A stretch of 64,000 nucleotides of DNA from a virus. The stretch lies in the IMG/VR virus record IMGVR_UViG_3300036944_000550, positions 32,536-96,535 of that record. One strand, given 5' to 3'. The notes beneath the pieces were generated by a model. The model worked only from the letters and a program-made list of their open reading frames with translations. It ran no database searches and was not told the DNA's origin. Of the stretch, positions 25,545-64,000 are shown piece after piece; position 1 is the stretch's first letter, and the number at the start of each line of letters is the position of its first letter. The translations under genes and the position numbers were made by a program.

Positions 25545-25552
25545 TATTTATA
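25545..25552 (-). promoter_or_regulatory. T4-type late promoter TATAAATA, 5 nt before the gp25 ATG
   Basis: Exact consensus. Confidence 0.75.
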
Positions 25553-41250: not shown

Positions 41251-41256
41251 ATATAT

Positions 41257-41288: not shown

Positions 41289-41292
41289 TGTT

Positions 41293-45828: not shown

Positions 45829-45913
45829 AGATAAACGGATCGCTCTTTCGTATCTTATTGATTCTTCTTCGTAGTTTATATGCATTATACCATTTAATTA
45901 TTTTCTGGAACAT
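45821..45913 (-). CDS. 30-aa basic peptide ending DPFIYD, missing from the ORF track
   Basis: MFQKIIKWYNAYKLRRRINKIRKSDPFIYD. GGAGGA RBS; the 3' end overlaps the carbamoyltransferase start. Confidence 0.65.
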   Translation of the reverse strand: MFQKIIKWYNAYKLRRRINKIRKSDPFIYD

Positions 45914-46880: not shown

Positions 46881-47748
46881 GTAATTCTTTCATTATATTT
46901 TGGGCATGTTTTTCTTGCGATAGTTTTCCTGGGTGCTGTAAATCCCTTGCTTGTTTGTTATCCAAATAGTTAGGGAATATTTCTTCTGCTATGTTATGTG
47001 GCGCAACAATTTGCAACAATTCATGTGTTGGCATATCCCACGTAGTAAATAACACATTAATATTTCTCTCAGCAGCAATATCCAAGATATAATTAATGTT
47101 AAACGATAATTTAGATAATTGATAGTTTTCATGAATACCAAAAAATGGTTCCATGTATTTCTTGTGTACGTTGCTCCTAGAATTCGGAATCAAATCAGTT
47201 ACTATTCCATCCGGATCTATAAAAAATTCTCTGTAAACATGTGGTAACGTAAATACTGCTATATCAAGGTTGACAAATTTTGTAAACACAGAAAAAATTC
47301 TTGTAATTCTCTCGATGGATGATCCTCCTTTACCAACATTGAAAATTCTGGATTGGGTCAACTCTTCAAGATAATGTGGATGTATCTCGTGTGAAGGCAA
47401 TCCATCCCCGAACGTAAAACTATCACCAAAGCATCCTATCTTCTTCTTATCAGTTACAGTTAACTCCCATTTGTCTCTGAATAAATATGGATTTAAATGA
47501 TACTTCCAAGAATCCTGTATTAAACCTTGTTTAATAAGTTGCTCTTCAAAGTAATTGGTGTATTCCAGATAGACATCACGATAGGGAATTTGTTCTGGTT
47601 TTGGGTATGGCAACACATATCCCAGCACTCTAATATCATCTAAAGATAAAAATTTATGGTGCGAAATATCAGTTAACGCTTCTGACACAGATGGATCTCT
47701 GTAAAATTTTTTTTCTAATCTTATCTTTTGTAATATATCATTGTGCAT
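46861..47748 (-). CDS. SGNH/GDSL hydrolase-like protein
   Basis: CFGDSFTFGDG (block I), NVGKGGSS (block II), D.QHPG (block V). Confidence 0.75.
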   Translation of the reverse strand: MHNDILQKIRLEKKFYRDPSVSEALTDISHHKFLSLDDIRVLGYVLPYPKPEQIPYRDVYLEYTNYFEEQLIKQGLIQDSWKYHLNPYLFRDKWELTVTDKKKIGCFGDSFTFGDGLPSHEIHPHYLEELTQSRIFNVGKGGSSIERITRIFSVFTKFVNLDIAVFTLPHVYREFFIDPDGIVTDLIPNSRSNVHKKYMEPFFGIHENYQLSKLSFNINYILDIAAERNINVLFTTWDMPTHELLQIVAPHNIAEEIFPNYLDNKQARDLQHPGKLSQEKHAQNIMKELHDRTWI

Positions 47749-48997
47749 CTATAAACTCCGGATTAACTGCATAGAAATTTTGATTTCTAATATTATCAAG
47801 TCGATTAATTTTGTTTTTGAAATTATCCATCAGGTGACTATTGTCAGAAGAATACATGAAATCTATAATAGACGACCATCCAGAATACGGTATTCCCCAG
47901 TCAGATTGTAATTTCATACCATATATATGAATTTTCTCAGCACATCTATCCTTAAGAAGTTTCGGCATTACCGTAATACTGTATTCACTTGGAACGAACA
48001 GAGGATTTAAGTGGAATCTATCTGACCAATAATTTTCAATATTAATTTCCCGACCGCGAATATCAGTCAAAGGAATCAAATCGTTACTATGTAGAGTATT
48101 ATGGAGTTCTGTTAATCTGAAGATATTAAGAATACTGACAGTAGGATGGATCCAATAATCTGCAGACCTGCTTGCGCGAATTCGTTTAATATTCTCGAAT
48201 GTTTTATTCCAGTTTCCACGATAACGGATATACTCAAACGCATCACCTACGCCATCAATGCTCAAACTCAGATGGACATCTTTAAACTTCTTCCAGTAAT
48301 CTAGAACATTATATTTTTCTTTGCCAAGAGTAGTTCCATTGGTACTATATCTAAGTCGGACATTATGCCTTCCCTTTTCATCTAGTAGTTGAAGAATATT
48401 CCAATGTTCCGGCATTATGAGAGGTTCGCCACCCGCAAAATGTATCTGTTGCATACTACTAAGATTTCGTTCGATTTCTTCCCAAAATAAAGAAGATTTT
48501 TCTAGAGAAATAAGACCCAATTCAGTTTCATCATTTGGATGTAATACTTTCCAATCTTTACTCCACGAAGTGCTGAACAATGGTGCACATGTTACACATG
48601 CTAGATTACACTCATTACTAAAACGAAAGTCCCAATACAATAATCTTGCTTCGGAAATTGTTCCATCTGGTTGTGTAGATTGCACTAAATCTGCTACCGC
48701 ATCATACCACTGAGAATTCATCCCTGCGCGCATGGTGTTCAAACCATGATCGCCTTTATCTATGCAGCGATGACATTGTTCTGGTAAAGGTTTACCATCC
48801 AACATATCCTTTCTCATTTTCTTTGCGCTGTCACTATTCATAATCTCAAGAAATGATTGTTCTTTAACATTTCCAAAAGAATATTCAGATTTCAATGGAG
48901 TTTGGCAACAGGCATATGCTCTACCATCATTGATGACATGCAAGTGTGACCATAGTGCTGAACAGAATGTGGATTCGTTTTTATAATCTCTAGTCAT
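47738..48997 (-). CDS. Radical SAM protein with an N-terminal Twitch/SPASM-like Cys cluster
   Basis: FC.ALW, ACC, C..C; CNLACVTC; FAGGEPL; STNGT; SIDG. Confidence 0.9.
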   Translation of the reverse strand: MTRDYKNESTFCSALWSHLHVINDGRAYACCQTPLKSEYSFGNVKEQSFLEIMNSDSAKKMRKDMLDGKPLPEQCHRCIDKGDHGLNTMRAGMNSQWYDAVADLVQSTQPDGTISEARLLYWDFRFSNECNLACVTCAPLFSTSWSKDWKVLHPNDETELGLISLEKSSLFWEEIERNLSSMQQIHFAGGEPLIMPEHWNILQLLDEKGRHNVRLRYSTNGTTLGKEKYNVLDYWKKFKDVHLSLSIDGVGDAFEYIRYRGNWNKTFENIKRIRASRSADYWIHPTVSILNIFRLTELHNTLHSNDLIPLTDIRGREINIENYWSDRFHLNPLFVPSEYSITVMPKLLKDRCAEKIHIYGMKLQSDWGIPYSGWSSIIDFMYSSDNSHLMDNFKNKINRLDNIRNQNFYAVNPEFIDAQ

Positions 48998-50504
48998 AGT
49001 TGCCCAATGGGTCTCCGATATTGGAAGAATCCGGAGTAAGAATCCAACCTTCTTCTTTTGCGATGCGCATCAGATCTTCATCATTAATATATTGCTTTGT
49101 GCTGTCACCATTAATCAAATTGGTCTTATCTTTCAATTTTGTATCTGGCAATGTTTGATACCAGTCACGAAGAATTACCGGAAACGTCTCAACAAGATTT
49201 TTGTTTCTGCGTTGATCATATTGACTGTAGAATGTTTTAAAATCTCTCCAAAGAGTAATTTTATTGCTGGTTCTTCTGTGCGGTGCTTCTACAATATCAA
49301 GATAATCAATCAATCGTTCGATGCTTACCTTCTCAAAATCATTCCATAATGGACGTTCTTTTGCTTGCTCATACCATGTGAGTAGTTTCTCTCGACAATA
49401 ATTCTTAATATGATCAGGAAGCGCAAGAGGACTTTGGAAACTGGGGAACCGCAGTAGATTCAAACTCAAAGTAGGTGTTTTAGAGTTTGTCATTTGTTTA
49501 ATTGAATATATATCATCCATAAATTCAGTTATGTCAAATAAACATAGACTGTTGATGGTCATCATAATATTCAATCCCTGAACATTACCTTCTGTGATTA
49601 GACGAATAAGGTTCTTTCTCCAAACAACATAATCAAAACCATCACGAATATACTCTGCATGATCTTTAGATGATTCACAACTAGTATATACTGAGAAACT
49701 TTTGATATTTTTACTTTTCTCAATCAATCTATCGATGGTTTCATCTTTAGCAATCAAGTTGGTATTGATAGCAAATGCCATGTCACTATCTTGTTTCTCA
49801 AACCAATCAAGTAGTCTCCATGTTTCAGGACTCATCAGCGGTTCGCCACCAGTAATCCTTAACTCTTTCAGTGTATCAGCAAGACCGTTGTCCCACCATT
49901 TCCAGAAAGCATCAATATACGGATTGGTATCATCCTTACTAAATGGTTCGGTCCAAGAACCATCTTGCTCAAAGGCACCTGCACCATCTGACACTAAGTT
50001 TTGATATGGTCCATTCTGTTTAATATCTCTTGCCCATGAGGTAGAGAAACTAGCATTGCAATATGAACAAGCAAGATTACAAGTTCTATCAAATGCAATC
50101 TCAAAAGTCCGGAGGGATGCATCATCCTTCCAATCGCTCGTATATGCTTTTTCGAGATCATCTTCTGTGTGGATTATAGATTTGAATACTCGATCGCTGA
50201 CATTGTCTCTGCCAATATCTTCAATTTTCCAGCAATACTCACACTCAGAAGGTCGATCACCATCCTGCATCATCTTACGCATTGCTTTTTTATGCATAGT
50301 ATTATGGATTGCAGAAGGATTGTTAGCAACCTCTTCAAGTGGAATCTTATGTGCGGGTGGGTGATGACAACTTGCTGTTGTCCCACTACCCAACCAAGTG
50401 GTCGCATTATACCATTTTGCGCCGCAAAAACTTTTAGACTTACTATCTAAAACTCTGTTACGGTATTCCAGTAGTGTCTCATCAGGTTTCTTGAACGAAG
50501 TCAT
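48990..50504 (-). CDS. Radical SAM protein with an N-terminal Cys cluster
   Basis: FCGAKW, SCHHP, ECEYCW; CNLACSYC; ITGGEPL. Confidence 0.9.
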   Translation of the reverse strand: MTSFKKPDETLLEYRNRVLDSKSKSFCGAKWYNATTWLGSGTTASCHHPPAHKIPLEEVANNPSAIHNTMHKKAMRKMMQDGDRPSECEYCWKIEDIGRDNVSDRVFKSIIHTEDDLEKAYTSDWKDDASLRTFEIAFDRTCNLACSYCNASFSTSWARDIKQNGPYQNLVSDGAGAFEQDGSWTEPFSKDDTNPYIDAFWKWWDNGLADTLKELRITGGEPLMSPETWRLLDWFEKQDSDMAFAINTNLIAKDETIDRLIEKSKNIKSFSVYTSCESSKDHAEYIRDGFDYVVWRKNLIRLITEGNVQGLNIMMTINSLCLFDITEFMDDIYSIKQMTNSKTPTLSLNLLRFPSFQSPLALPDHIKNYCREKLLTWYEQAKERPLWNDFEKVSIERLIDYLDIVEAPHRRTSNKITLWRDFKTFYSQYDQRRNKNLVETFPVILRDWYQTLPDTKLKDKTNLINGDSTKQYINDEDLMRIAKEEGWILTPDSSNIGDPLGNYD

Positions 50505-50505
50505 A

Positions 50506-51885
50506 TTAATCTTTCCACTCTTCAAGTAAGTTCACATACATCGGGAATGTAATGCTGAAGTTCTTATTTCTTCTTATATCATATTCGTTTACAAATTTAA
50601 CGAAGTCACTACGATATTTATCTGCAGTTGGAGTAGTCCTCAGATAATCACAGAATCTTTTAATTTGATCCCATTCTTCAAGATATAGTCTTGCCCACTG
50701 TGATGATGAATGATACTTCAACCAACCTTCACAATATTTCTCAATCTTATCTGCATACTCTATTCTGGTTTCAGTGTTGAGTAGTGTTGCCTGTAAGTAT
50801 GGAGGATACCGTAAGTAGTTAACACTCAACGGAACTCTGTTTTCTTCGGTATTTCTGTTAAACAGAACACGCAGATCCATAACATGCTCGACGAATTCTG
50901 CAAAAGATGGTAAACTTAAAATATTAATCGTTGTCATAATGTTAACACGGAAGTTGGTTTCGCGTAGAATGCGTTCTACGTTTGCATACCACTTCATGTA
51001 GTTAATACCATCACGAGCATACTCTGCTTGTGCGAAGGTGCTCTCCGCGCTAGTATAAATTTGAATATCTTTGACTTTACCCTCGAGAGAGTTAATTGTC
51101 TCAATCAACTTATCAACTAACTGATCGGGCACACCCAAGTTTGTATTAATACCAAGTTCTATGTCAGCAGGAGGGTTCTGTTTGATCAGTTCCATTGTTT
51201 CCCAGAAATCCTTGCTCATAGTGGGTTCACCACCAGTCATACGAAACACTTTCACATGCTTCATCGCTTCTGGGAACCACTCTTTAAATGCTTCCGAGTA
51301 TGGATTATGTTCGCTGTTCTTATATGGGAATCGTCCTACCTGTTTCAACCATTCTAGATTACTTGTTCCGAATTGCGTAGGATATGGACCATTCTGTTTA
51401 ACGTCATCCATCCACTTACTAGAAATTTCAGGTGAACAATATGCACAAGCAAAATTACAAGCATTAGAAAACGAAACTTCAAGATATGTTGGGAATACAT
51501 TCGCATCCCATGCCGTATGCGCGATCTCATCAATCTTATCATATGACCACCATTCCGCAGTCTTGTAATGTCTGTCTGAAAAATACTCTGTATTGAGATC
51601 TTCAATTTTCCAGCAGTATTCACATTCAGATGGACGCTCGCCCTCTAGCATCTTCTTACGTTGCTGTTTCTTGAAAGAACTATTGCTCAACGCATTAATA
51701 TCATTCGCAAGTTCTTCTAGTGGAATTTTATGCGGAGATGGATGGTGACATGAATGATTGTAACCATTTTGCAAATATAAGGTTGTTTGCAACCATTTTG
51801 CTGCACAGAAAGAAGGACTTACTGCATTGATAACATCACGTTTCCTACCCAGTTCTTCTATTCGTTCTTCGTTCGGTATTATCAT
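50506..51885 (-). CDS. Radical SAM protein with an N-terminal Cys cluster; paralogue of 48990-50504
   Basis: FCAAKW, SCHHP, ECEYCW; CNFACAYC; MTGGEPT. Confidence 0.9.
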   Translation of the reverse strand: MIIPNEERIEELGRKRDVINAVSPSFCAAKWLQTTLYLQNGYNHSCHHPSPHKIPLEELANDINALSNSSFKKQQRKKMLEGERPSECEYCWKIEDLNTEYFSDRHYKTAEWWSYDKIDEIAHTAWDANVFPTYLEVSFSNACNFACAYCSPEISSKWMDDVKQNGPYPTQFGTSNLEWLKQVGRFPYKNSEHNPYSEAFKEWFPEAMKHVKVFRMTGGEPTMSKDFWETMELIKQNPPADIELGINTNLGVPDQLVDKLIETINSLEGKVKDIQIYTSAESTFAQAEYARDGINYMKWYANVERILRETNFRVNIMTTINILSLPSFAEFVEHVMDLRVLFNRNTEENRVPLSVNYLRYPPYLQATLLNTETRIEYADKIEKYCEGWLKYHSSSQWARLYLEEWDQIKRFCDYLRTTPTADKYRSDFVKFVNEYDIRRNKNFSITFPMYVNLLEEWKD

Positions 51886-52466
51886 TTATAACCCACTGCC
51901 ATGTATCTATAGAAATGCCCACACTTCAACATACCTGCATACTGCGGATTTTTAATATTGTTGATTGTTAAAAATTCTTCTAGATTATCGGCAATGCGGA
52001 CATGCTCAGGATTAACTAGATTATTTCCTTGGACGATATATTTAGTCGTGTTAGGAATAGAGTCCCACCACGCATCATATACTTCTTGTGTAACATGCTC
52101 GGTACTGGTATTGATCACCAGATCCGGATGTGAATGATTGAGCGGCATGCCATTTCGCATGTCGTGTTGACGAAATGTGATATCGTGATAGCACTCATCG
52201 ATGGCATCAAATACCTGTTTACAATCAGAAGACAAGTCAGTAGTTAGAATTCGCGCATCAGGAAACTTATGTGCAATAAACTGTGCAAGAACTCCATACC
52301 ACCCACCGAAAATTACGATAGATCTATCCATGTGAGTTACATGTTCGAGCAACCATTTCTTGCTCTCGATTTGACTGTCCCAAAAGTTCTCGGAGAATCT
52401 GTATGCATTATCTGGATTATTGCGGATATATTGCATCCATAGCATCACAACATCAAAATTAACCAC
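51882..52466 (-). CDS. Class I SAM-dependent methyltransferase-like protein
   Basis: QIESKKWL, IVIFGGWYG, DLVINTSTEH, RYMAVG. The GTG start overlaps the end of the upstream gene. Confidence 0.65.
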   Translation of the reverse strand: MVNFDVVMLWMQYIRNNPDNAYRFSENFWDSQIESKKWLLEHVTHMDRSIVIFGGWYGVLAQFIAHKFPDARILTTDLSSDCKQVFDAIDECYHDITFRQHDMRNGMPLNHSHPDLVINTSTEHVTQEVYDAWWDSIPNTTKYIVQGNNLVNPEHVRIADNLEEFLTINNIKNPQYAGMLKCGHFYRYMAVGYK

Positions 52467-52860
52467 GACGCATCTTCGCAATCTCCAAAATTTGTTCATC
52501 ATTAATAACAGGAACAGCATTGCTCTTATGTAGAACGCTGATACCCTTGATAAGTGTGCCTGTGTAGATCTGTTCTTTGCGAGAATAGTTTACACCAATA
52601 CCATCACCAGAAGGATACTTGTGACGATGGTCGCTGACTTCATATTTAGGGAGAGGTGTGCCACGCAACTTGGGATTATACTTACCCTGACGATAGGAGA
52701 CATACTCATCGAATGTCTTTGTCTTGCTACCAATCCGCTTCATCTGCTTATTGTAATCTACCCAGTCCTGGGAATACCGTGCAGCGACACCCTTGTTAGA
52801 AGTCTTGCGCTTCTTGGTGCTAGTGGTGGTGAACGCATGTGACATAAGTTGCATAGACAT
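52459..52860 (-). CDS. Hypothetical basic phage protein
   Basis: C-terminal YTGTLIKGISVLHKSNAVPV...MRRG; AAGGA RBS; sigma70 promoter upstream. Confidence 0.7.
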   Translation of the reverse strand: MSMQLMSHAFTTTSTKKRKTSNKGVAARYSQDWVDYNKQMKRIGSKTKTFDEYVSYRQGKYNPKLRGTPLPKYEVSDHRHKYPSGDGIGVNYSRKEQIYTGTLIKGISVLHKSNAVPVINDEQILEIAKMRRG

Positions 52861-53728: not shown

Positions 53729-53898
53729 TGTCTACAACAATTCACGATCAGGAAATCGATGAGCACTTCGGTCGAGTTGAAAGCGAACTCAATACACAAG
53801 AAGTAACAGAAACTCCTGTTGTGTTTTTCCGATTCAACGAGGAAAAGGACAACCCACTACTTACTTGGACGTGGCACGGTAAACCCCATCGAAGTTAG
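53728..53898 (+). CDS. Hypothetical protein
   Basis: TAATG coupling with a GGAG RBS; the 3' end overlaps the cyclase gene. Confidence 0.45.
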   Translation: MSTTIHDQEIDEHFGRVESELNTQEVTETPVVFFRFNEEKDNPLLTWTWHGKPHRS

Positions 53899-55924
53899 CA
53901 GGAGGTTCGCCCTCCATGCGCTCGAGCATCATGTCATAGTAATTTACCAACTCTCCTTGCCAGCACTTCTTTAAGTCGCTGGCAAACATTTTAGCGTCTT
54001 CCCAATTTCCGCTACGGTAAAATCCTAAGAATTTCTTATGTTGTAATTCACCAGCAGTATCATAGAATGGGAATGCTGTATATATTCTAGCAGGTTCTGT
54101 CTTACCTTTAACAGCAATTAGATCAAGTTCTACTACTTGGTATACATCCCCAACCAATTCGGCAGTTTGCGGTCCGAGGACGAGTTTGACTCCATAAGGC
54201 TTGGATTGACCTTCCAGACGAGCAGCCAAATTAACGCCATCCCCCAAGCAAGTATAGTCAAAACGCTGAGTGCTGCCCATATTACCAACAACCACAGTGG
54301 CAGTGTTAATACCAAGACCCATCCCAAAAGCGGGTACACCTTCTCTTTTAATTTCGTCATTGAAAATCTCCAAATCTTTTAGCATCTGAAAGGCAGTTCT
54401 TACTGCATCTAACGCATGCTTGTTATTATCCAACGGTGCATTCCAGAATGCCATCTGAGCATCACCAATATACTTGTCTAGTGTACCCTTGTTCTCAAGG
54501 ATTGCTCTTGTCATCACCGTCATGTAGCGATTCATAATCTTCGTAAGACCTTGAACGTCTTCACCGTAGTGTTCAGAGATGGTAGTAAACCCACGAACGT
54601 CTGTAAACATGATCGACAGTTCCCTAGAGTCACCACCAAGTGTCAGAAGTTCTGGTTGCCTTTGTAACTGAGCGACAAGATCTGGTGACAGATAGGTTCC
54701 GAACTGCTTCTTAATTTGCTGTTTCTGTAGATATTCAGAAATATACTTTGCGGTGAAGATGTGAATATAGATGAGAGCAATAGCAAATACGTTAAATGTT
54801 ACATCGAACAGAATACCTTTGCTCGCAAACAGATAAACAGGTAGATAGAAATATCCACCGAGAATCACAGCAATATAAATTATAGAGAATTTAAAACGAG
54901 AAAGAATGATCAATGCCAGAGCAAGACCAAGAAAAGCAGCGAGATCCGCAATTGCTGACCAGTTCGGAATCGCAACCGAATCCCCATTTATCAGAGTTTC
55001 AAGAATACTCGCCTGAAGGACATGGGGATATTGCGCACCTGAGGGAGTCGCTACAGGGTTCGCTATACCAGCAGCAGTTACGCCAACAATTACAATTTTC
55101 CCATCAAGACGAGGAATATCAGAACCTACTTCAACAGATGGAAATACATAATTGGGATTAATAAACGTTCTTCCATATTCATCTGTTTTAATTGTCTCGA
55201 AAGAAGGAATTCGTAATGCTTCAACCCCAGTCTGATTTATCTTTGCCTGATACGAAGGGTCTCCGGCAGCAACTCTTAACATTTCTAGAGCAAACGCAGG
55301 ATAGTATTCACCCTCTGATGTTGCGAGAAGCGGAACTCGTCGCACAACTCCGTCAGATTCAGGAAGAGTTGACGTTACTCCAACACCAGCAGCATTCTGC
55401 TGAAGCATTGCTAGATTCGATAGGACGCATGGATATGACGAAATAAAGTCTGTCGCCTGACCGTCTCCAATCACAGCAACTCCTGTCCGACCTAGATCCG
55501 CTCGGTGAGCACTCTTTGATGCAGTACAGTCAGCGGACACAGTCTGACTGAGAACTACTGGATACTGATTTAAGGTATCCGAAAGAACTCGATCAGTCCC
55601 CATCCGATCAGACTCAGGCATAAGTATAGTGCTACCAACAAGAGTAGCCCCTCTAGCATAAAGGTCGCTAATAATTTGAGCATGGACCTCACGTGGAAAC
55701 GGCCACTGACCATATTTCTCAATTGCTTTCTCCCCAATATTGACTGTTACAATTTGTTCAGATTGCGTCGGCGAACCGAGCATCAAATAATCATAAAACT
55801 TCAATCTCGCGGATTCGACCATGTATGGATTTGCTAGTTTTACTGTTAACAATACCGCAAAAGTAATCAATGCCAACCATGGCGAGAGTAGAACTTTTTT
55901 AGTTTTTTGTATAAGAGTATCCAT
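53861..55924 (-). CDS. CHASE2-domain class III adenylate cyclase
   Basis: N-terminal TM, CHASE2 (GQWPFPR, DGVVRRVPL, GKIVIVG), three TMs, and a cyclase core FTDVRGFT, DKYIGDAQMAFW, GDGVNLAARLEG. Confidence 0.93.
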   Translation of the reverse strand: MDTLIQKTKKVLLSPWLALITFAVLLTVKLANPYMVESARLKFYDYLMLGSPTQSEQIVTVNIGEKAIEKYGQWPFPREVHAQIISDLYARGATLVGSTILMPESDRMGTDRVLSDTLNQYPVVLSQTVSADCTASKSAHRADLGRTGVAVIGDGQATDFISSYPCVLSNLAMLQQNAAGVGVTSTLPESDGVVRRVPLLATSEGEYYPAFALEMLRVAAGDPSYQAKINQTGVEALRIPSFETIKTDEYGRTFINPNYVFPSVEVGSDIPRLDGKIVIVGVTAAGIANPVATPSGAQYPHVLQASILETLINGDSVAIPNWSAIADLAAFLGLALALIILSRFKFSIIYIAVILGGYFYLPVYLFASKGILFDVTFNVFAIALIYIHIFTAKYISEYLQKQQIKKQFGTYLSPDLVAQLQRQPELLTLGGDSRELSIMFTDVRGFTTISEHYGEDVQGLTKIMNRYMTVMTRAILENKGTLDKYIGDAQMAFWNAPLDNNKHALDAVRTAFQMLKDLEIFNDEIKREGVPAFGMGLGINTATVVVGNMGSTQRFDYTCLGDGVNLAARLEGQSKPYGVKLVLGPQTAELVGDVYQVVELDLIAVKGKTEPARIYTAFPFYDTAGELQHKKFLGFYRSGNWEDAKMFASDLKKCWQGELVNYYDMMLERMEGEPPANFDGVYRATSK

Positions 55925-57353
55925 TACATGGTCCAGTCGTGCATGTTATTTCCATTTTCGCAGAGTCGGCGGCAGTCAAGTTATTTTGTGTGACAGTTAC
56001 ACCAATTCCAGGACTATTTAGTAAAAGTTGAAATTGCTTCGCAGAAGCACCTAGTTGAGTAACAGATGCAGTAACTCCACCAAATGGTGCGCTGATATCT
56101 AGAAAATGGTTACCAGTCCCTTGTTGTAAGGCACTGATATTATTAGAGTTTCCTAAAGCATTGATAAACAACGATTTTCCGTTAGCGTCTTTTTGCTGTG
56201 CTGAGATTTGATTGCTCAGACCATTGGTAATAATCTCCGCATATTTACCACCATATTGTTGAGTCAGAGATACAATATTGTTATTACCAGTTATAGAAAC
56301 TTCTGCTAAATTCTTACCGATTGGTGTTACTGCTGTACCTTGATTAATAGTTACGCTGTTACCGCTACCATTGATCAGCATTGCTTGTGCGCCATTAACG
56401 CCACGAATTTGATTTTGCTTTGAGAACTGTTCGATATAAACCGAATTGTTAGATCCAGTAGCATTGATGTAAATAGAGTTTTGCGTAATCGCATTTGTTT
56501 GATTAATCTTCAATGATTGGTTCGCACTGATTGATGCCAACGGAAATGTTGGTTCTGGTGGCGCAGGTGGAGGAGGTGGCGGTGCAGAAGAACCAGCATT
56601 AGGAGCAACAGGTGTAAAGGTTGCTCCATTCAAGGAGGTTGTTCCTTGCATCTGATCGATAAACAGAATTGGTGATAATGCAGTATCGCCTAGATTGAAT
56701 GAGGCAAATCCTAAAAGATAGTTTCCGTCAGCAGGAACTGTGAAGACTGCGACTTGCCAACCTGTAGCACCGTAAGACCCCACAGAATAATTTCCAGTTC
56801 CTTGATTGGTGAATCCTAGAAGCGCGAAGTTTTGAGTTTGTCCGTTGATTGTCGGAGTACCATTACCACCAGTAACAGTGATCATCGATCCATCATTGTA
56901 TGGAACATAATCCGTCGAAACATACTGCCAAGCATAAGTGTATGTTGTTCCTGCTTGAAGGAACATTGTTCTACTGATAGAAGTCGCATTGGTAGGATAC
57001 ATGCTACCATTAGAGTAAATAGTATTCCTAATTGATGTAATTGTAGAACCTGACAACCCTAAAGTAGTCATGGCACCATCAAATCCAGGAGATCCATTTC
57101 CTGCTTGTAGCGATACCATGTAGGAACCATATGGAGTAACAGTCCAGCACTTACCGCCACCTGGACAGTAGTTAGTCATACCAGTTGTTACTTGAACACC
57201 CGAACCACTATCACTCCAGGAAGTTCTTGCTGTAGTTGAACCGTTACTAACAGTCCAACCTGTATAGTTGCCATTCTCGAAACCGTAGTTCGTTACCTGT
57301 GCGAATGCAGGCATCGCAAACAATAATAAGAATAGAGCAATTAGATTTTTCAT
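55899..57353 (-). CDS. Secreted protein: beta-rich N-domain, Pro linker and C-terminal curlin-like repeats
   Basis: Signal peptide ending AFA, NYGFENG..GW, PPPPPAPPEP, and repeats of G-x-N-N-x-V-x-I-x-Q type. Confidence 0.65.
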   Translation of the reverse strand: MKNLIALFLLLFAMPAFAQVTNYGFENGNYTGWTVSNGSTTARTSWSDSGSGVQVTTGMTNYCPGGGKCWTVTPYGSYMVSLQAGNGSPGFDGAMTTLGLSGSTITSIRNTIYSNGSMYPTNATSISRTMFLQAGTTYTYAWQYVSTDYVPYNDGSMITVTGGNGTPTINGQTQNFALLGFTNQGTGNYSVGSYGATGWQVAVFTVPADGNYLLGFASFNLGDTALSPILFIDQMQGTTSLNGATFTPVAPNAGSSAPPPPPPAPPEPTFPLASISANQSLKINQTNAITQNSIYINATGSNNSVYIEQFSKQNQIRGVNGAQAMLINGSGNSVTINQGTAVTPIGKNLAEVSITGNNNIVSLTQQYGGKYAEIITNGLSNQISAQQKDANGKSLFINALGNSNNISALQQGTGNHFLDISAPFGGVTASVTQLGASAKQFQLLLNSPGIGVTVTQNNLTAADSAKMEITCTTGPCNGYSYTKN

Positions 57354-58495
57354 CTTGCACCTGTTTCCTGCATCACAGTTATATTACCTTGTGGTCTACC
57401 AGTTCCTGATGTTGTCCACTTATCGTCCACAAAGTTGTAAACATCTATCAAACCATTTTGAACAGATACCACTTGCGCTTCGTTACCTTTCTCCAACCAG
57501 ATAGTAACTGCCTGTTGTCTATCTTCGGAGAGTCGAGTATACACCCAACCGACTTGAACATTCTTCTTGAACGTAGGAGAAACATTAGTATAGACTGTTT
57601 CTGCTGGTTTACCACCTTCGTTAAATTCAGCAAAAACTTCTAGTAGTTCTTGAGGTGTTGCTTGACGAAGCATGGCAACTGTAACTTGTTCCGTGCTATC
57701 ATCGGTGCCTGCATCTGGATCCTTATTGTCATCCGATGCTGCTTTTGCAGGGTTAGTAAATTTCTTTAAACTATCTCTAGCAAGTTGAAGCAAACTTTGC
57801 CCATCATCCGTTTCTAGTGGAACAATTTGAACATTGTTATCTAGCGCCTTCATCAAAGGATTAATAACTACTGGTGGAGCAGGAGGAGCAAAGTTGTTTT
57901 CCACAACTGTTGCTTGGAATGGTTGAGTTAATGTAACTACGCCAGATGCTGTAATAACATCTATCATTCCATTCGGACATTCCGCAGTCTGTTTGGTGAT
58001 GTCTAATTCGTTATAACATTCGGGAACCAGCACGACCGTAGAACGACCTGCTTCATCAACCGACATAACGAAGTCTGTGCCACGAACTGCGATAGTAGCA
58101 GTTGGTGTGCGAATGTTTACGCCTCTGGGGTTTGTTTTTGCGACTTTACCTGACGCATATCTAACTGTTCCAAGAGCAACTCGTAACCCGAGTTTGCCTT
58201 TTGATTTCCCTCCACCATCATACACAAAATCATCCACAAGAAGTCGCGAGTTTTCTGTAATATTAACTGTTGTCGAGTCATTGAATGTAATCCTAAATCT
58301 ACCTTGAGAGTTGGTGGACACTGTGTCCATTTTTTCTACAGCAGAACCTTTAGATGCTGCTGTAGTCTTAGCACCACGCTTAATGGCACCACCTCCTCTG
58401 GACTCTGTTATCGACCCAATACCAGCAAAGGCAGGAGTCGATAACAGAAAAATCAGTAGAAGATTAGTGACCAGTTTTGATATTAAACGTGCCAT
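57350..58495 (-). CDS. FecR-domain periplasmic protein
   Basis: Signal peptide ending PAFA; D.V.T...I.F.D.T.V.I.ENS.L, GTVRY.SG, TPTATIAVRGTDF. Confidence 0.85.
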   Translation of the reverse strand: MARLISKLVTNLLLIFLLSTPAFAGIGSITESRGGGAIKRGAKTTAASKGSAVEKMDTVSTNSQGRFRITFNDSTTVNITENSRLLVDDFVYDGGGKSKGKLGLRVALGTVRYASGKVAKTNPRGVNIRTPTATIAVRGTDFVMSVDEAGRSTVVLVPECYNELDITKQTAECPNGMIDVITASGVVTLTQPFQATVVENNFAPPAPPVVINPLMKALDNNVQIVPLETDDGQSLLQLARDSLKKFTNPAKAASDDNKDPDAGTDDSTEQVTVAMLRQATPQELLEVFAEFNEGGKPAETVYTNVSPTFKKNVQVGWVYTRLSEDRQQAVTIWLEKGNEAQVVSVQNGLIDVYNFVDDKWTTSGTGRPQGNITVMQETGAR

Positions 58496-59237
58496 TTGAT
58501 CCCACACTATTAATATTGATCACAGTTTCAGATGCGCCATACTGTTGTGTTGTTACAGTGTTTAGCGAACCTGTTAGGTTTACATATAGTGAGTGACCAA
58601 ATGTTCCACCGAGATCGGTTTGTGTAACATCAAAGTCATTATAGTTGCCTGTCACCAGAATAGTTTGTGACGCATTTGGTGATAACGCATCCATGTTGAT
58701 TGTGTTATTGTTACCGTTGAAATCCATAGAGTTACGGATGTTAGCACCCGAACCACGGAAAACAAACGAGTTGTTATTACCAGTGAATTTGGCATTCATG
58801 TCAAGTTGATTACATGAGGAGTCAGTAACTTCAGTTCCGCAACGGATGGTAGCAGTATTCAGGTCACCGATTTGACGAATTGTTACATCGGCGATTCCTT
58901 GGGCTCCTGTATCGGATACGATACCCATATAAAGTTGGTTTCCATTGCCTGTTTGTATTGCGATAACGCTCTGGTTATCACCACGTAGGTAAATAGGATC
59001 AATAGAAGAACCGATGACATTAGCAGTACCAGTTTGAACGATGTTAACATCTACGTTACCCCCTTCTTGATCAATATAAACTTTATTGGTTGTCGCAACA
59101 GTATTCGCTTCTGTTTCATTTGGCGAAGTTGTTACAATTGCTGGAGGAGTTGGTGCTGTTGGTAGCACTGTTTGTGCAGTCACTGATGTTCCATAACAAA
59201 GAGCAGCTCCAACTAATAAAAACTTACTTAGTTTCAT
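58464..59237 (-). CDS. Secreted curlin-like (CsgA/CsgB-type repeat) protein
   Basis: Signal peptide; repeated Q-x-G-x-x-N motifs (QTGTAN, QTGNGN, QIGDLN) and GNNN/GNYN beta-arcs. Confidence 0.7.
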   Translation of the reverse strand: MKLSKFLLVGAALCYGTSVTAQTVLPTAPTPPAIVTTSPNETEANTVATTNKVYIDQEGGNVDVNIVQTGTANVIGSSIDPIYLRGDNQSVIAIQTGNGNQLYMGIVSDTGAQGIADVTIRQIGDLNTATIRCGTEVTDSSCNQLDMNAKFTGNNNSFVFRGSGANIRNSMDFNGNNNTINMDALSPNASQTILVTGNYNDFDVTQTDLGGTFGHSLYVNLTGSLNTVTTQQYGASETVININSVGSNGTFNIKTGH

Positions 59238-60048
59238 TTGTTGTTTCCTTTTGTTTGAATCTCCATAGACTCTTTCTTTCACCATCCTTGATTAACTCAA
59301 CAACGGCCGTTTCTATGGCAGAACGGATCGCATAACTACCTGCTTCATTACTTGTTTGTTGTCCATCAAATTCAAATGCTTTAGTCGCCATGTCGAAAAA
59401 TGTGAATGCAGTTACTCCCTCGGAAGTAGAGAGAACAGTTTTCTCTACAGTAACCGAATTGAGAACTTCGCCAGTCTGGACAGAAACTAGACGAAGACTA
59501 ACTGTAACTTGGTCTTGTGTGTATTGCTGGTATGGACCGACGCCAAGGAATCTAGCACCAGTACCACCAGTTTTAATGTTAGAATTATAATCAATGATAC
59601 CACCTTCAATGATGATACCCGCAACCTTTAGTGGTGGAAGAGGTTCAGCCGCTTCTCCTGAAATTTGTTCACGCATCTGACGAACAAGTTGACGTTCTTT
59701 AATCAGCGAATCAATACCGACACGTTCAACAGGAATAAACCACTTACCGTTTCCTGTATCCTGTAGTGTTTTGATCAGATATGCATCTGCACCCTGAGTT
59801 ACCGCAGTCGAGAAACTGGCAAGAGTCGAAGATGGTTTACGTTGTCCAGTTCTATCAGTAAACGAATACAGCGCGATGGGAATTGGTTGCCCATCTAATT
59901 CAGGAAGATCCTTGAATAGTTTTGGATTTGCAAAACGCTTGACTTCAGCATCATCTCTAAAGAGATATGATTGGTTGGCAGTAGGATGAAGTGCACCGAC
60001 GCATCCAGAAAGAACTAACAAAAGCGGAAGGAGAATTAACTTTTTCAT
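59224..60048 (-). CDS. csgG: Curli secretion channel CsgG (outer-membrane lipoprotein)
   Basis: Lipobox LSGC; FTDRTGQRKP, FSTAVTQGA, WF.PVER, EGGII.Y.SN.KTGG.GARFLG, DQVTVSLR. Confidence 0.93.
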   Translation of the reverse strand: MKKLILLPLLLVLSGCVGALHPTANQSYLFRDDAEVKRFANPKLFKDLPELDGQPIPIALYSFTDRTGQRKPSSTLASFSTAVTQGADAYLIKTLQDTGNGKWFIPVERVGIDSLIKERQLVRQMREQISGEAAEPLPPLKVAGIIIEGGIIDYNSNIKTGGTGARFLGVGPYQQYTQDQVTVSLRLVSVQTGEVLNSVTVEKTVLSTSEGVTAFTFFDMATKAFEFDGQQTSNEAGSYAIRSAIETAVVELIKDGERKSLWRFKQKETTNETK

Positions 60049-60057
60049 ACCGTCTCC

Positions 60058-60507
60058 TTAGAATGCGAATTTAGCAATAGGAACGACAACAACCGTAGTA
60101 TTGCCATTCTTATCCACTACTGTTAGAGTAACTTCAGTTCCAGTCTTGACATAACTCACAGAATTACCATCGAGATTAAATGTTCCTGTGGTTGATGTTC
60201 CGCCTTCTGCGAACAGATTATTCGAAAGTTGTGTAGCAAGTTGAGCATAAACCTGAGAGGTAAACAACGCCATGAATTTAGCAAGAGGAGTATTTGATGC
60301 CTCTGCTCTTATCAATGCTGCTTTCGCTGCCTCTGCGTCTTTGATTGCCTGTTCGCGCGAACGCTCTTGTGCGTCGATTGACTGCACATGCGAAGACCAC
60401 CCATAACCAGTAAAGGAAGGTGATTTAAACTGTTGAACAATCGGATCGGCGTATGCTGGACTACTTAGACTTAGTAGCGTCAGGAGCATCATCGCTCGTT
60501 TTAGCAT
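60058..60507 (-). CDS. csgF: Curli assembly factor CsgF-like protein
   Basis: Signal peptide followed by QQFKSPSF.G (compare CsgF FRNPNFGG); adjacent to csgG. Confidence 0.8.
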   Translation of the reverse strand: MLKRAMMLLTLLSLSSPAYADPIVQQFKSPSFTGYGWSSHVQSIDAQERSREQAIKDAEAAKAALIRAEASNTPLAKFMALFTSQVYAQLATQLSNNLFAEGGTSTTGTFNLDGNSVSYVKTGTEVTLTVVDKNGNTTVVVVPIAKFAF

Positions 60508-60598
60508 TTTTCTCTTCCCCTTTGTTTTTGTTGTCAGAAGAAAAATTTAAATCAAAAGTAAATACCTTGAGGATTTCAATTTTTAGGTTTATTGTCAT
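60461..60598 (-). CDS. Possible 45-aa ORF spanning the gap before csgF
   Basis: GAGGA RBS and MTINLKIEILKVFTFDLNF..., but it overlaps both neighbours. Confidence 0.25.
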   Translation of the reverse strand: MTINLKIEILKVFTFDLNFSSDNKNKGEEKNAKTSDDAPDATKSK

Positions 60599-60842
60599 CA
60601 CTATGATCCTCTTTTATTTGTAGTACTACACTCACCTTCTGGTTTAATCTTATCAAATCGTTATCAAGCATACGAACACGGTCAATCAACGCAATCAAAA
60701 TTACATTTGTTTCACCAATCAATGGCATCAGTTTATCTGTTACGAATTTATAGATGAACCACACAAAGTACCCCATACCGACAGAGGCGACAATTGGGAA
60801 TCCATACTGCTTTACAAGTTCTGCAATCAGTTGTGGATCCAC
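60576..60842 (-). CDS. Small single-TM membrane protein (GFPI motif; holin-like?)
   Basis: YGFPIVASVGMGYFVWFIY TM followed by LIDRVRMLDNDLIRL coiled coil. Confidence 0.7.
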   Translation of the reverse strand: MDPQLIAELVKQYGFPIVASVGMGYFVWFIYKFVTDKLMPLIGETNVILIALIDRVRMLDNDLIRLNQKVSVVLQIKEDHSDDNKPKN

Positions 60843-61129
60843 TAGTCTTTCCTTGCGTCGTTTTTCCCGTCTGCTCGTGCTATTCTATCTAGATCTGGTT
60901 TAAGACCCAAGGCGGAACTAACAACTGCATCAACGCGAATAATATCATGGTTCATAGTTTTCACTCGGTTATCTAACCCCATGATAATACCCTGCATTCC
61001 TTTGAGTGCTTTTACAACACCCTCAAGAATATAGTTGATGACGAAATACACAAAAACCCCACCGAGCAATGCTGCTGCGATAGGGAATCCTACATCTCCA
61101 ATTAGTTTAAAAATTATGTCGTAACTCAT
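60842..61129 (-). CDS. Small single-TM membrane protein (GFPI motif); paralogue of 60576-60842
   Basis: VGFPIAAALLGGVFVYFVI TM followed by LDNRVKTMNHDIIRV. Confidence 0.7.
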   Translation of the reverse strand: MSYDIIFKLIGDVGFPIAAALLGGVFVYFVINYILEGVVKALKGMQGIIMGLDNRVKTMNHDIIRVDAVVSSALGLKPDLDRIARADGKNDARKD

Positions 61130-61134
61130 ACGAC

Positions 61135-61142
61135 TATTTATA
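61135..61142 (-). promoter_or_regulatory. T4-type late promoter heading the csg/FecR/cyclase operon
   Basis: Exact TATAAATA, 5 nt before the ATG at 61129. Confidence 0.75.
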
Positions 61143-61161: not shown

Positions 61162-62280
61162 TCATCGAATGATTTCAATACTGTTAATACTATTTGCATT
61201 CCAAATTTCAAGATTATTTCGTAATCTTCCGTCTGACTTTAATGTTTCGTATCTTGAAGTCGCTTTTTTCTTCCACCAGCGAATAATATTCTCAAAATAA
61301 TGCTTATCAAAGTTTTCTTTGCTCTTGATCAGCGTTTTATCGTTTCCGAGGATGTAATTTTTTGAGTTTTCATACCCGTAAGTCGAAATATAAAATCTTT
61401 TTTGCGTTGTAACGTCTTTGTTCGCCTGAATTGCGTTAGAAAATGCCAAAAGTTCGCTAGAATTGTGAAATTTTAGTGAATTTTTGATAATTGACGTCAT
61501 TTTGTTCTGCATTTTCATTTTATACGACGCAATTCCTTCTCTGCCGAACAATGGGTCACCATTATTTTTGCTTGCGAACCAATTCATGGTCTCTAACCAG
61601 AAATCATCGGAAAATGAAAGGAGAAAATTGCTTACAGTATCGCCAGTGTATCGTATAAACGGTTTTAGACCATCATATTGCGATGCTTGCTTAATATTTC
61701 CGTATAATGATGTCGTTTCAAAGAGACAAGTTTCCATGTCATACTTCTTGTCGAACATTTCACGAAATTCATGAGATGCACAAAGAAGTGATAGTAGTTT
61801 ACCGCCGAGATAATTGAATCCGAACGGTTGCGCAGGAACAATAATGAATCCCATGACTGCATGTTTGTTGAATAACTTTAAATCAGGAACTTGCCCGAAC
61901 CACTCATTCCTCGGTCTAGAATTGATCAGAGGACTTGCGACTCTACAGAAACCAACGTACTTACCACTGTTCTTTTCGCGAACGATGAATTTAATTTCCT
62001 TACCGAATGAGTTCTCGTTACAGAAGGATGAAGTAATTTCAACCATCGTAGAGAACTCATTCGGAGAAGTTTCAAAGATCTCAAACTCCATGTCTTCTGG
62101 ATGCATGCTGAAGTCAGAGAATAACATGTTCTCTGGTTCATAACCTGGAAGTGTGAGAGGAAGAGTGTTTACGCGATCGAGTTTTTTCATACGCATGTGG
62201 TCGTCGATACGATCATAGTTTGACATATAATCAATAAATCGACGACCAATGTATTCTGCGTCTGCTTTATCTAATATCAA
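61162..62280 (-). CDS. DUF4338/DruA-like (probable GNAT-fold) protein
   Basis: FIVREK.SGKYVG, PRNEWFG, VPAQPFGFNYLGGKLL, ETTSLYG, SQYDGL. Confidence 0.6.
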   Translation of the reverse strand: MILDKADAEYIGRRFIDYMSNYDRIDDHMRMKKLDRVNTLPLTLPGYEPENMLFSDFSMHPEDMEFEIFETSPNEFSTMVEITSSFCNENSFGKEIKFIVREKNSGKYVGFCRVASPLINSRPRNEWFGQVPDLKLFNKHAVMGFIIVPAQPFGFNYLGGKLLSLLCASHEFREMFDKKYDMETCLFETTSLYGNIKQASQYDGLKPFIRYTGDTVSNFLLSFSDDFWLETMNWFASKNNGDPLFGREGIASYKMKMQNKMTSIIKNSLKFHNSSELLAFSNAIQANKDVTTQKRFYISTYGYENSKNYILGNDKTLIKSKENFDKHYFENIIRWWKKKATSRYETLKSDGRLRNNLEIWNANSINSIEIIR

Positions 62281-63086
62281 AACAGATCCGCTAGAGAAGA
62301 TTCTACCTTACGATACTTCTTATTACGGTCATGGAGTTTCAACTCTGCGTGACCTGTAGTTTCTCGGATATACATTGTGCAAAGTTCTGGGAACTCGTCA
62401 GCAATAATCTTCACGCTGTCATGCACATATTCCTTAGTGCGAACATCTTGAAGACCACCTTCTTCTTTGTAATACCGAGACTTGACTGTGTAGTTGTCAA
62501 GACGAGCAAGGACACCATTTTTGATATACTGACGAATAGAATATTCGTAGTCTTCACCATGGTTGGTTACTCGAGCGAGAAAATCATCATGTTCAACAAT
62601 CACACCAAACATCGAGGCAATGATATAACAAATGTCATTGTATACTCGATCTTTCATAAAAAACGCATTTGATGCTGCGTAGATACCAAAGGTCTTAGCA
62701 CCTACCTTCTCACATTCCTCAAATCCACGAAGAAAGATTTCTCGCTCGAGATCTTCGACACGACCCAACTTCTGTTCACTGATTTTGACTTGAACTTCTT
62801 CAATGTCATCATCGAACATCATCAGTCGTGTACCTTCCGGATACCAACGTTCAATGAAGTTACGTTGTCTGCCGATAGTCGGAACACCGCGAATAATCTG
62901 AATATCTTTTGCGTAAGGATTTTCCTTCAGCGCATTAGCATATCGGTCATATTCGCCTTCATCCTGATCATTAACAAAGATCGTGATTTTAGCAGGATCG
63001 ATGTTATATGATTCAAGAACTTTCAATGTCTTATTCTGAATAGTATGTTCACGATGATAAGACGGAATAGCAATACTATATTCCAT
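62277..63086 (-). CDS. TET-associated (GREB1-like) GT-A glycosyltransferase
   Basis: IAIPSY.R, RQRNFI, MFDDDI, EDYE.S, GGLQ; directly downstream of the TET/JBP gene. Confidence 0.8.
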   Translation of the reverse strand: MEYSIAIPSYHREHTIQNKTLKVLESYNIDPAKITIFVNDQDEGEYDRYANALKENPYAKDIQIIRGVPTIGRQRNFIERWYPEGTRLMMFDDDIEEVQVKISEQKLGRVEDLEREIFLRGFEECEKVGAKTFGIYAASNAFFMKDRVYNDICYIIASMFGVIVEHDDFLARVTNHGEDYEYSIRQYIKNGVLARLDNYTVKSRYYKEEGGLQDVRTKEYVHDSVKIIADEFPELCTMYIRETTGHAELKLHDRNKKYRKVESSLADLF

Positions 63087-64000
63087 TAAAATAAATCTCC
63101 GAGTGTTGATGTTGTTTTATCTGCTGCAGGATGGTATTTAGAAACTGTTTCACGTCCGAGTTTAGTTTCAAGATAGTCATACCATTCTTGCTCATCCCAC
63201 ATTCCTGGCGATACTCCATTCCAAAGTGGACGATGATGCTTATGCTCTTTGTTCAATCTACGGTCAATCACATACTGCTCACGAGTTGTTTCATATTCAT
63301 ATGAACCAAGATCTAGCATGTTCTCACGAAGATAGCAAACCAACGAAATACGCTCAGCATCTGGACGAGTCAGTTTAATCTCAGTGTTACCATGGATAAT
63401 CTCGTGATTGCTCACAAGTAACAAGTCACCTGGACGAACGTTCACTGCCATCCGATATTCAGGGAATACTAGATAACCACCAGTATAGTCGCCACTACCC
63501 ACGACCAGAAGATTGCTGAGACCATCAGCAAAGTCACCAGCGTCGCGATGCGCTGCTGTTCGGAAGGACTTGTTGACAGTGATGGTGGTGAATACAGTTT
63601 CGGGAACAACGAACTTAGAGTCAATTGTGTCGACTGCTTTCTTTTGGTTCGACCAACGCGAAGGGAGAAGTTCTTTGAAACCACGGTCCAGAGTCTGTAG
63701 AAAAGGAAAGGACAACTTAAACTTATCAAAGTTATCGCGAGTATAGGTAGTAGCACGACCAAAAGGAATCCTAGGATAACGGTCATACCACCCAGCAACA
63801 CCTGAGAAAACCGACTTAGCATAGTTGGTTGTTGAAATCCAAGTTTCTGCAATAGTTTTTGCTTCTTTAGCAACATCTTCTTTGCTCTTTGCTTCTAGAC
63901 TATCGACCCACTTATCGAACCAACCAAAATATTCTGGATATACTTTACATACTTGACTGCGCAACCAGACAGCGCCTCGCGTCTCGTCAGCATTAGATCG
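63086..64000 (-). CDS. TET/JBP-family 2OG-Fe(II) dioxygenase, 5'-truncated by the window edge
   Basis: FTTITVN..FRTAAHRDAGD (HxD), GGYLVFPEY, GDLLL, HGNT, RISLVCYLRE. The frame is open to 64000. Confidence 0.85.
   Translation of the reverse strand, partial: RSNADETRGAVWLRSQVCKVYPEYFGWFDKWVDSLEAKSKEDVAKEAKTIAETWISTTNYAKSVFSGVAGWYDRYPRIPFGRATTYTRDNFDKFKLSFPFLQTLDRGFKELLPSRWSNQKKAVDTIDSKFVVPETVFTTITVNKSFRTAAHRDAGDFADGLSNLLVVGSGDYTGGYLVFPEYRMAVNVRPGDLLLVSNHEIIHGNTEIKLTRPDAERISLVCYLRENMLDLGSYEYETTREQYVIDRRLNKEHKHHRPLWNGVSPGMWDEQEWYDYLETKLGRETVSKYHPAADKTTSTLGDLF

Follow-up and report, generated by a model that had tools for sequence, protein, structure and literature searches.

We analyzed a window of 64,000 nucleotides (nt) from the virus record IMGVR_UViG_3300036944_000550 (positions 32,536 to 96,535 of a 96.5-kb IMG/VR contig with an estimated completeness of 59%), which carries an eight-gene operon in which genes for a curli-type secretion pore and curlin-like secreted proteins adjoin genes for a FecR-domain protein and a CHASE2 adenylate cyclase. 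This block belongs to the viral type VIII secretion (curli) module already published from T4-like and podo-type aquatic phages, and its carrier probably comes from freshwater. The best reading of the module, which we hold to be moderately probable and which draws on protein families, motifs and inference, is that it couples the export of fibers to an envelope sensor that makes cyclic AMP (cAMP). The gene identities, the intact active site of the cyclase, the export signals, the conserved linkage of the genes and the variable lectin-type heads of one secreted protein were computed or read directly in this study.

According to this reading, the block would be transcribed late from a T4-type promoter, probably as a leaderless messenger RNA (mRNA), and the infected cell would receive an outer-membrane pore of CsgG and CsgF. 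Two curlin-type subunits, one plain and one with a sugar-binding-type head on a polyproline linker, would be exported through the pore and would together coat the cell with adhesive amyloid-like fibers. We infer such fiber formation, and likewise a coupling between the exported FecR-fold protein and the CHASE2 class IIIb cyclase, which as a conserved periplasm-to-cytoplasm sensor pair might convert an envelope or fiber-export cue into cAMP; the downstream effect would depend on host proteins that read cAMP. The two small membrane proteins encoded first in the operon may be phage-specific accessories.

Gene order, late-promoter motif and conservation among phages

Eight co-oriented open reading frames (ORFs) follow one another on the minus strand and span positions 53861–61129 of the window. 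The operon consists of the following features, listed in the direction of transcription with lengths in amino acids (aa).

61135–61142, minus strand: T4-type late promoter motif TATAAATA, 5 nt upstream of the sm1 ATG
60842–61129, minus strand: sm1, 95-aa single-pass membrane protein with a conserved GFPI motif (phrog_18771)
60576–60842, minus strand: sm2, 88-aa paralogue of sm1 (phrog_18771)
60058–60507, minus strand: csgF, secreted CsgF homologue (PF10614, phrog_35372)
59224–60048, minus strand: csgG, outer-membrane lipoprotein pore (PF03783)
58464–59237 (open up to 59285), minus strand: cur1, secreted curlin-like repeat protein, CsgA/B-like (sub-threshold Curlin_rpt)
57350–58495 (open up to a GTG at 58507), minus strand: FecR-domain gene with a secreted product (PF04773)
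55899–57353, minus strand: cur2, secreted protein with a head, a polyproline linker and curlin-like repeats (from its structure model and orthologues)
53861–55924, minus strand: CHASE2-sensor class IIIb adenylate cyclase (PF05226 and PF00211)

Read from the sequence, sm1 and sm2 overlap by 1 nt. The 68-nt gap between sm2 and csgF is the only junction without abutment or overlap; csgF and csgG are spaced by 9 nt, and the later junctions overlap by 4 to approximately 44 nt. Positions 59237 and 58495 are the likelier starts of cur1 and the FecR gene, respectively, because they result in clean signal peptides, as in relatives. PHROGs families exist for six of the eight proteins. Judged from the sequence and from relatives, Sec-type signal peptides head CsgF, the cur1 product, the FecR protein and the cur2 product, and a lipobox is present in CsgG. 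The initial annotation of this DNA had described eight co-oriented, mostly abutting or overlapping genes in this order behind one exact T4 late promoter, and this observation is confirmed by the ORFs, the Pfam and PHROGs matches and the promoter motif.

Only one exact copy of TATAAATA is present within 53861–61142 (at 61142–61135, minus strand), and the window as a whole contains 11 copies versus 4.8 expected, a count that was reached by no shuffle. The motif precedes sm1 in 44 of 71 related loci, in most cases with the identical 5-nt spacing, and the contig encodes a gp33-like late coactivator (E = 2.5e-9). Since the T4 late box occupies positions −13 to −6, this promoter geometry together with the spacing between TATAAATA and ATG predicts a leaderless late mRNA whose first nucleotide would be the A of the sm1 ATG. 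A second gene, at 25141–25539 (minus strand), has a matching TATAAATA-N5-ATG start with its box at 25545–25552 (minus strand), which suggests leaderless late mRNAs as a feature of this phage lineage. Contigs 88–99% alike across all eight genes were found in three freshwater metatranscriptome runs from three studies; they are weak evidence of expression, because DNA carry-over is possible and strand, 5′ ends and co-transcription are invisible in contigs. Sequencing runs with candidate matches to the DNA of this stretch carry mostly freshwater or lake labels, and these run labels are the lead by which we regard the phage as probably a freshwater one. No near-identical DNA was found in the phage collection, which may lack records close to the window.

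The initial annotation had proposed a survey of gene neighborhoods around phage csgG, and the survey bore out the linkage that it anticipated: the FecR and cyclase genes travel with csgF and csgG in every one of approximately 80 related viral contigs with enough flank. Across 80 IMG/VR loci, in which CsgG is 46–100% identical, the order csgF, csgG, cur1, FecR gene, optional cur2 and cyclase is retained wherever the flank suffices. One or two secreted curlin-repeat proteins are encoded in every module, and CsgF is always retained. The module is also present in giant-phage records of 258 kb (L049), 360 kb (L053) and 326 kb (L063), among which the 360-kb genome is 100% complete with direct terminal repeats.

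The claim that the complete set was new in a phage did not hold. Wittmers et al. (2022; PMC9599517) described a histidine kinase (HK), CsgF, CsgG, CsgA/B, FecR, a second CsgA/B and adenylate cyclase gene set in pelagiphages of the Myoviridae and Podoviridae, and found the module at all 65 ocean virome stations searched, with matches in metatranscriptomes as well. It is likewise annotated in the cultured Pelagibacter phage HTVC008M (KC465899, 6900–13807) and the cultured Methylophilales phage Melnitz (MZ577097, 50118–56876), where the pelagiphage type VIII secretion region comprises the same eight families in an order identical to that of the window, also within a T4-like backbone. The gene set itself is thus already known, and the window copy adds a further, probably freshwater, member, whose proteins are 39–52% identical to those of HTVC008M and Melnitz. 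The placement of the promoter motif differs: the single copy in the operon region precedes the small genes, whereas TATAAATA of HTVC008M lies 5 nt before csgF.

Both small proteins belong to the phage-only family phrog_18771 (E = 5.3e-30 for sm1 and 2.1e-30 for sm2) and are paralogues of each other; a hydropathy scan places the hydrophobic segment of sm1 at approximately residues 13–31. Among 50,697 phage records, homologues of the small proteins were identified only in HTVC008M and Melnitz, both of which bear the module. sm2 is always beside sm1 in related loci, and in divergent loci the pair is found downstream of the cyclase on the opposite strand, with linkage retained. The HK identity used by Wittmers et al. 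was considered and rejected, because the Pfam search of sm1 and sm2 returned no family, and no kinase family even at E ≤ 10, and their Atlas clusters are viral only, with a weak YvrJ lead at 0.89.

Secretion pore and curlin-like subunits

The identities of the two pore components are clear. CsgF matches PF10614 with 63.1 bits (cut-off 25.8; E = 3.8e-17) over profile positions 3–132 of 132, matches phrog_35372 and has a signal peptide readable from its sequence; in a phmmer comparison, none of the solved structures matched at E ≤ 1 was a CsgF chain. CsgG matches PF03783 (179.8 bits; 5.8e-53) and aligns over its full length to E. coli CsgG structures (E = 1.4e-48), and its lipobox Cys16 is invariant across 17 viral homologues. 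Similar to the curli systems of E. coli and Alphaproteobacteria, the operon combines a CsgG lipoprotein pore and CsgF with Gln/Gly/Asn-rich repeat subunits that have Sec signal peptides. Unlike bacterial curli, it has a headed subunit, a FecR/CHASE2 cyclase pair, a changed pore constriction and divergent repeats, and no CsgE was found in the contig.

The product of cur1 shows a weak match to CsgB (E = 2.6e-4) and a regular Gln/Gly/Asn repeat pattern that is invariant in 18 homologues, and the annotation of its Melnitz orthologue reads "curlin associated repeat protein". The cur2 product is composed of an N-terminal globular head (approximately residues 20–250), a polyproline linker and curlin-like C-terminal repeats. 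Its C-terminal half, with regular Gln/Gly/Asn repeats, was modeled as a regular beta-solenoid with a predicted local distance difference test (pLDDT) score of 70–87, and orthologues in the same slot exceed the Curlin_rpt cut-off with 23.2, 23.3 and 36.5 bits. The head itself, in a low-confidence model, has weak matches to beta-sandwiches of carbohydrate-binding modules and adhesins (E ~1e-3).

The cur2 slot is variable and is absent from many otherwise complete modules. Where occupied, it encodes a secreted head, a proline-rich linker and a curlin tail. The heads in relatives include PA14 (loci L038 and L077) and F5/8 type C domains (L068 and L076); in L064 and L078, a head of the window type is preceded by an additional N-terminal domain, and further loci have heads of no assigned type. 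Swappable sugar-binding-type heads (PA14, F5/8 type C) on curlin tails therefore suggest lectin-headed fiber subunits, and glycan-binding heads exchanged on a putatively fiber-forming tail point to an adhesive surface product. Wittmers et al. (PMC9599517) make no mention of such lectin-type heads on the second curlin.

CHASE2 adenylate cyclase, FecR-domain protein and their bacterial relatives

The last gene encodes a full-length match to phrog_35576 (787 bits) with a CHASE2 domain (PF05226, 137 bits, 1.1e-39, residues 24–339) and a Guanylate_cyc domain (PF00211, 61.5 bits, 9.9e-17). Hydropathy peaks at residues 10–28, 323–341, 348–366 and 371–389 indicate one transmembrane segment, a periplasmic CHASE2 domain (approximately residues 32–322), three further transmembrane segments and a cytoplasmic cyclase domain. 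Among solved structures, its nearest relatives are adenylate cyclases: the top hit is 6fht (a bacteriophytochrome-adenylate cyclase fusion), followed by CyaB and CyaC. Residues D442, K484, D488, T558, N565 and R569 align with those of CyaB of Pseudomonas aeruginosa (3r5g) and CyaC of Spirulina (1wc0/1wc1), which we take to be class IIIb enzymes. D442 and D488 presumably bind the metals, K484 and Thr558 presumably form the specificity pair, and N565 and R569 presumably stabilize the transition state.

The metal-binding Asp pair, the ATP-specifying Lys and the Asn–Arg pair noted in the initial annotation are therefore all present, and Thr558, which that annotation had not listed, completes the Lys-Thr pair by which the enzyme is assigned to class IIIb from its sequence. 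Of 19 relatives, all retain D442, K484, D488 and R569, and 15 retain N565; the periplasmic CHASE2 domain is conserved among relatives as well. With its active site intact, the membrane enzyme of the module should make cAMP. A cyclase subclade from four other loci (L066, L074, L077 and L083) has Asp for Thr at position 558 and Ser for Asn at position 565; its activity or substrate may differ.

The FecR-domain protein matches PF04773 (50.6 bits, 2.7e-13), and no other Pfam domains were found in it. It begins with a signal peptide, followed by a FecR-fold domain of approximately 185 residues (~25–210), from which an acidic linker of low complexity leads to a C-terminal domain that is small and variable. 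An AlphaFold2 model of the N-terminal domain has a pLDDT of 75–93, and Foldseek aligned it with the periplasmic domains of anti-sigma factors (4m0h and PupR 6ovk; E ~5e-5, template modeling score 0.49–0.53 on the target). Across 20 homologues, the core TPTATIAVRGTDF of the FecR domain is conserved, and a cleavable-type signal peptide leads directly into the FecR domain with neither an anti-sigma domain nor a membrane anchor. No extracytoplasmic function (ECF) sigma factor or TonB-dependent transducer was matched among the eight module proteins and the products of two upstream genes, to which the search was limited. Because it lacks an anti-sigma domain and an anchor, and no ECF sigma factor or transducer is encoded in the block, the FecR protein shares the periplasmic fold of Fec-type signaling proteins and is not a member of a Fec-type system; the relay logic that the initial annotation had borrowed from Fec systems is accordingly not upheld.

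The nearest NCBIfam names for the FecR protein are LipL45 and Lsa33, with a weak match to a LapA-type retention module. Its C-terminus was also considered as a curlin repeat (G-N-x-T-V-x-Q by eye), a candidate that was rejected with a 0.2% probability in a profile-profile comparison with the curlin alignment. A prediction of the complex between CHASE2 (residues 34–320) and the FecR domain (residues 25–212) from separate alignments returned "no answer" with a score of 0.00, which bears neither way on their contact.

A pattern scan of 185,579 species genomes for the module identified five loci, each with the whole module. Three of them resemble mis-binned phage contigs: they carry sm1/sm2, two share further phage genes of the window, and one is a bare 10-kb contig. 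The other two belong to one Caulobacteraceae lineage and have bacterial flanks encoding cytochrome c, a TetR regulator and acyl-CoA dehydrogenase. They are represented by this copy:

8230–15539 of contig CANGCO010000005.1 (L086, a Caulobacteraceae metagenome-assembled genome): csgF-csgG-curlin-FecR-CHASE2 cyclase copy

This copy lacks the small membrane genes, and an SpdA/CpdA-like phosphodiesterase is encoded just upstream. Its cyclase is 56% identical to that of the window, whereas the next best among 301 alphaproteobacterial genomes reaches 41%. In a quick tree with midpoint rooting, supported only by the Shimodaira–Hasegawa-like approximate likelihood ratio test (SH-aLRT), the phage cyclases group in a clade separate from the 20 alphaproteobacterial sequences that were sampled, and the Caulobacteraceae cyclase nests within the viral clade as sister to the window subclade (SH-aLRT 99). 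Because of this nesting, transfer of the module from phage to bacterium looks likelier, and a bacterial donor of the joined module, which was also considered, less likely, in a thin sampling.

No cyclic nucleotide monophosphate (cNMP)-binding domain was found in the 59% complete window contig, and none in five further module-bearing phage records, three of which (Melnitz, HTVC008M and the 360-kb phage) are complete. Because the module-bearing phages searched encode no such domain, the cAMP reader is most likely a host protein. This requirement for a host reader would also fit a cyclase that is mainly a host-takeover enzyme, whose cAMP reprograms host CRP-type regulons or disturbs cyclic-nucleotide defense and whose gene adjoins the curli genes by joint inheritance. 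The Caulobacteraceae genome with the copy has seven cNMP-binding matches besides the phosphodiesterase adjoining the block, and the cyclase is absent from some podovirus modules (PMC9599517). However, the sensor cyclase always follows the FecR-domain gene despite moves of the small genes and gain or loss of cur2, which argues for a functional tie, and its conserved periplasmic CHASE2 domain leads us to expect a conditional rather than a constitutive output. Host takeover as the main role therefore seems improbable to us.

Pairing of FecR and CHASE2 proteins is not confined to phages. Such pairs have been published in Burkholderia, Pseudomonas and Campylobacterota (PMC5192318, PMC9239204), including an operon of a LysM-FecR protein and a CHASE2 kinase in Burkholderia (PMC5192318) and a CHASE2 cyclase cluster with FecR pairing in Campylobacterota (PMC9239204), the latter with a CpdA/SpdA-like phosphodiesterase as beside the Caulobacteraceae copy. 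Similar to the phage module, an exported FecR-domain protein is encoded beside a CHASE2 membrane sensor in these pairs; in contrast to it, the bacterial pairs are chromosomal and not joined to a curli pore, and any FecR–CHASE2 contact in them is putative. We identified FecR-domain genes within 6 kb of five of the 20 sampled alphaproteobacterial CHASE2 cyclases and no CsgG neighbor beside any of the 20. Eight alphaproteobacterial genomes that encode a close CsgG were also sampled, and seven of them had neither a FecR nor a cyclase gene within 10 kb of csgG. Three of the five FecR neighbors are giant adhesin-like proteins of the RTX/Calx-beta/VWA type with an N-terminal FecR domain, encoded beside CHASE2 cyclases in Alphaproteobacteria:

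L099, 1392–5678: giant FecR-adhesin-like protein
L107, 1450–4395: giant FecR-adhesin-like protein
L114, 2–2542: giant FecR-adhesin-like protein

These neighbors may represent an adhesin-coupled cAMP sensor.

Alternative readings, genomic context and significance

The initial annotation had interpreted the operon as a trans-envelope circuit, in which the fiber is a stalk that displays a sensor, contact with a superinfecting phage or a neighboring cell is passed through CsgG/CsgF and the FecR protein to the cyclase, and cAMP times lysis. Its parts do span the cell surface, outer membrane, periplasm, inner membrane and cytoplasm, the linkage of the module is conserved, and the binding-type head of cur2 could be the sensor. 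An outer-membrane protein, NsrA, is known to pass an external protein signal to the CHASE2 cyclases CyaD1, CyaD2 and CyaK of Sinorhizobium meliloti (PMC13001267). The three giant FecR-adhesins among five alphaproteobacterial FecR neighbors further suggest that a surface fiber physically joined to a periplasmic FecR domain is a recurring design. However, no result ties the FecR protein to CsgG/CsgF or the fiber, and its C-terminal domain is without similarity to the curlin profile. The protein also lacks every other feature of Fec-type cell-surface signaling, many modules that are complete in other respects do without cur2, the proposed sensor, and no lysis gene lies within the block. We consider this circuit unlikely, and a sensor on an amyloid stalk that times lysis is speculation. 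The interpretation is partly supported overall: the anatomy and the linkage of the operon stand, and the novelty and the mechanism do not.

The FecR protein might alternatively be a periplasmic plug or tether joined through the outer-membrane pore to the surface fiber, with the CHASE2 cyclase reading its load, occupancy or loss as an outside-in mechanical or contact sensor. LapA-type adhesins carry a periplasmic retention module at the N-terminal position, as the giant proteins carry FecR, and the layout of the phage protein, a folded FecR domain with a long acidic linker and a small C-terminal domain, matches this idea. If it were true, the lectin-headed curlins would supply target specificity. 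We give such a tether a rather slim chance.

Several observations weigh against the coupling of fiber export to a cAMP-making sensor that we favor. Neither curlin-like protein of the window reaches the Curlin_rpt cut-off of 20.7 bits: cur1 scores 17.6 bits in four stretches, and cur2, which has no significant Pfam match, scores 12.0 bits (E = 0.22), with a low-confidence model of its head. The constriction triad of E. coli CsgG is Tyr/Asn/Phe, and the phage CsgG keeps the Phe only, with Ser in place of both Tyr and Asn, so that the pore may behave differently from that of E. coli. In the loop concerned (approximately residues 71–80), KPSSTLASF stands versus KPYPASNF in E. coli, ASF being conserved among viral homologues, and the eyelet may be wider or chemically different. 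CsgE (PF10627) was not found at E ≤ 0.1 in the contig, which is 59% complete. CsgC appears to be absent as well, as none of the eight proteins matches CsgC or CsgD, for neither of which a family-directed search was made. Of the 20 bacterial CHASE2 cyclases sampled, 15 lack a FecR neighbor, and FecR–CHASE2 pairing is therefore frequent but not obligatory. Late T4-type transcription, moreover, is independent of CRP. Finally, no clumping was seen for Melnitz-infected cells (Buchholz et al., PMC9004378).

Some of these observations would suit a pore that exports no fiber, with CsgG and CsgF acting either as a gated secretin or pinholin that times lysis, as discussed by Buchholz et al. (2022; PMC9004378), or as an uptake channel for nutrients or cofactors, as discussed by Zaragoza-Solas et al. 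and Wittmers et al. (PMC9599517); in either case, the cyclase and FecR protein would serve to regulate the pore or have no connection with it. The missing CsgE gate, the altered constriction and the unclumped cells are in line with such a pore, as is the absence of curli genes from the hosts of the cultured relatives (PMC9004378). Alphaproteobacterial curli systems likewise lack CsgE (PMC9599517). Against a pore alone, secreted curlin-repeat proteins in every module are hard to explain without export, the fusion of lectin-type heads to curlin tails suggests a product at the cell surface, and CsgF, the fiber-anchoring factor, is never lost. A pore alone thus has a low probability in our judgment, and export of fibers coupled to a cAMP-making envelope sensor is the reading that we retain.

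The remainder of the window is that of a T4-like myovirus with baseplate wedge and tail proteins. It includes a permuted (two-piece) alpha-type transfer-messenger RNA (tmRNA) gene at 40952–41291 (minus strand; RF04321, 91 bits; RF01849, 57.6 bits), with one TATAAATA near its 5′ end (41257–41264) and another just downstream (40895–40902). It resembles the two-piece tmRNA gene reported for phage Melnitz (PMC9004378). Two minus-strand genes lie upstream of the operon (62277–63086 and 63086–63964): one matches phrog_842, a beta-glucosyl-HMC-alpha-glucosyltransferase family (HMC, hydroxymethylcytosine; 1.4e-11), and the next encodes a 292-aa protein with an HRD...H pattern that by eye resembles a 2-oxoglutarate-Fe(II) oxygenase. 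The two genes (62277–63964) may form a DNA hypermodification pair. Just downstream of the operon, at 43899–52520 (minus strand), a NodU/Nol-like carbamoyltransferase (phrog_1601, 1.5e-100) and radical S-adenosylmethionine enzymes (phrog_14086) are encoded.

To the published gene set, this analysis adds the lectin-type heads, a class IIIb cyclase amenable to assay in E. coli cyaA, the Caulobacteraceae copy and the absence of a recognizable cAMP reader from the phages searched. If a cultured relative with the Caulobacteraceae copy exists, it would make the module accessible to genetics. The swappable lectin heads on the curlin tail predict a glycan target. The block is common in aquatic phages, and the module is predicted to equip the infected cell with a surface organelle and a second-messenger sensor, neither of which is native to the hosts of the cultured relatives. 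Its function bears on how infected cells adhere to one another, keep out other phages or sense the environment around them.

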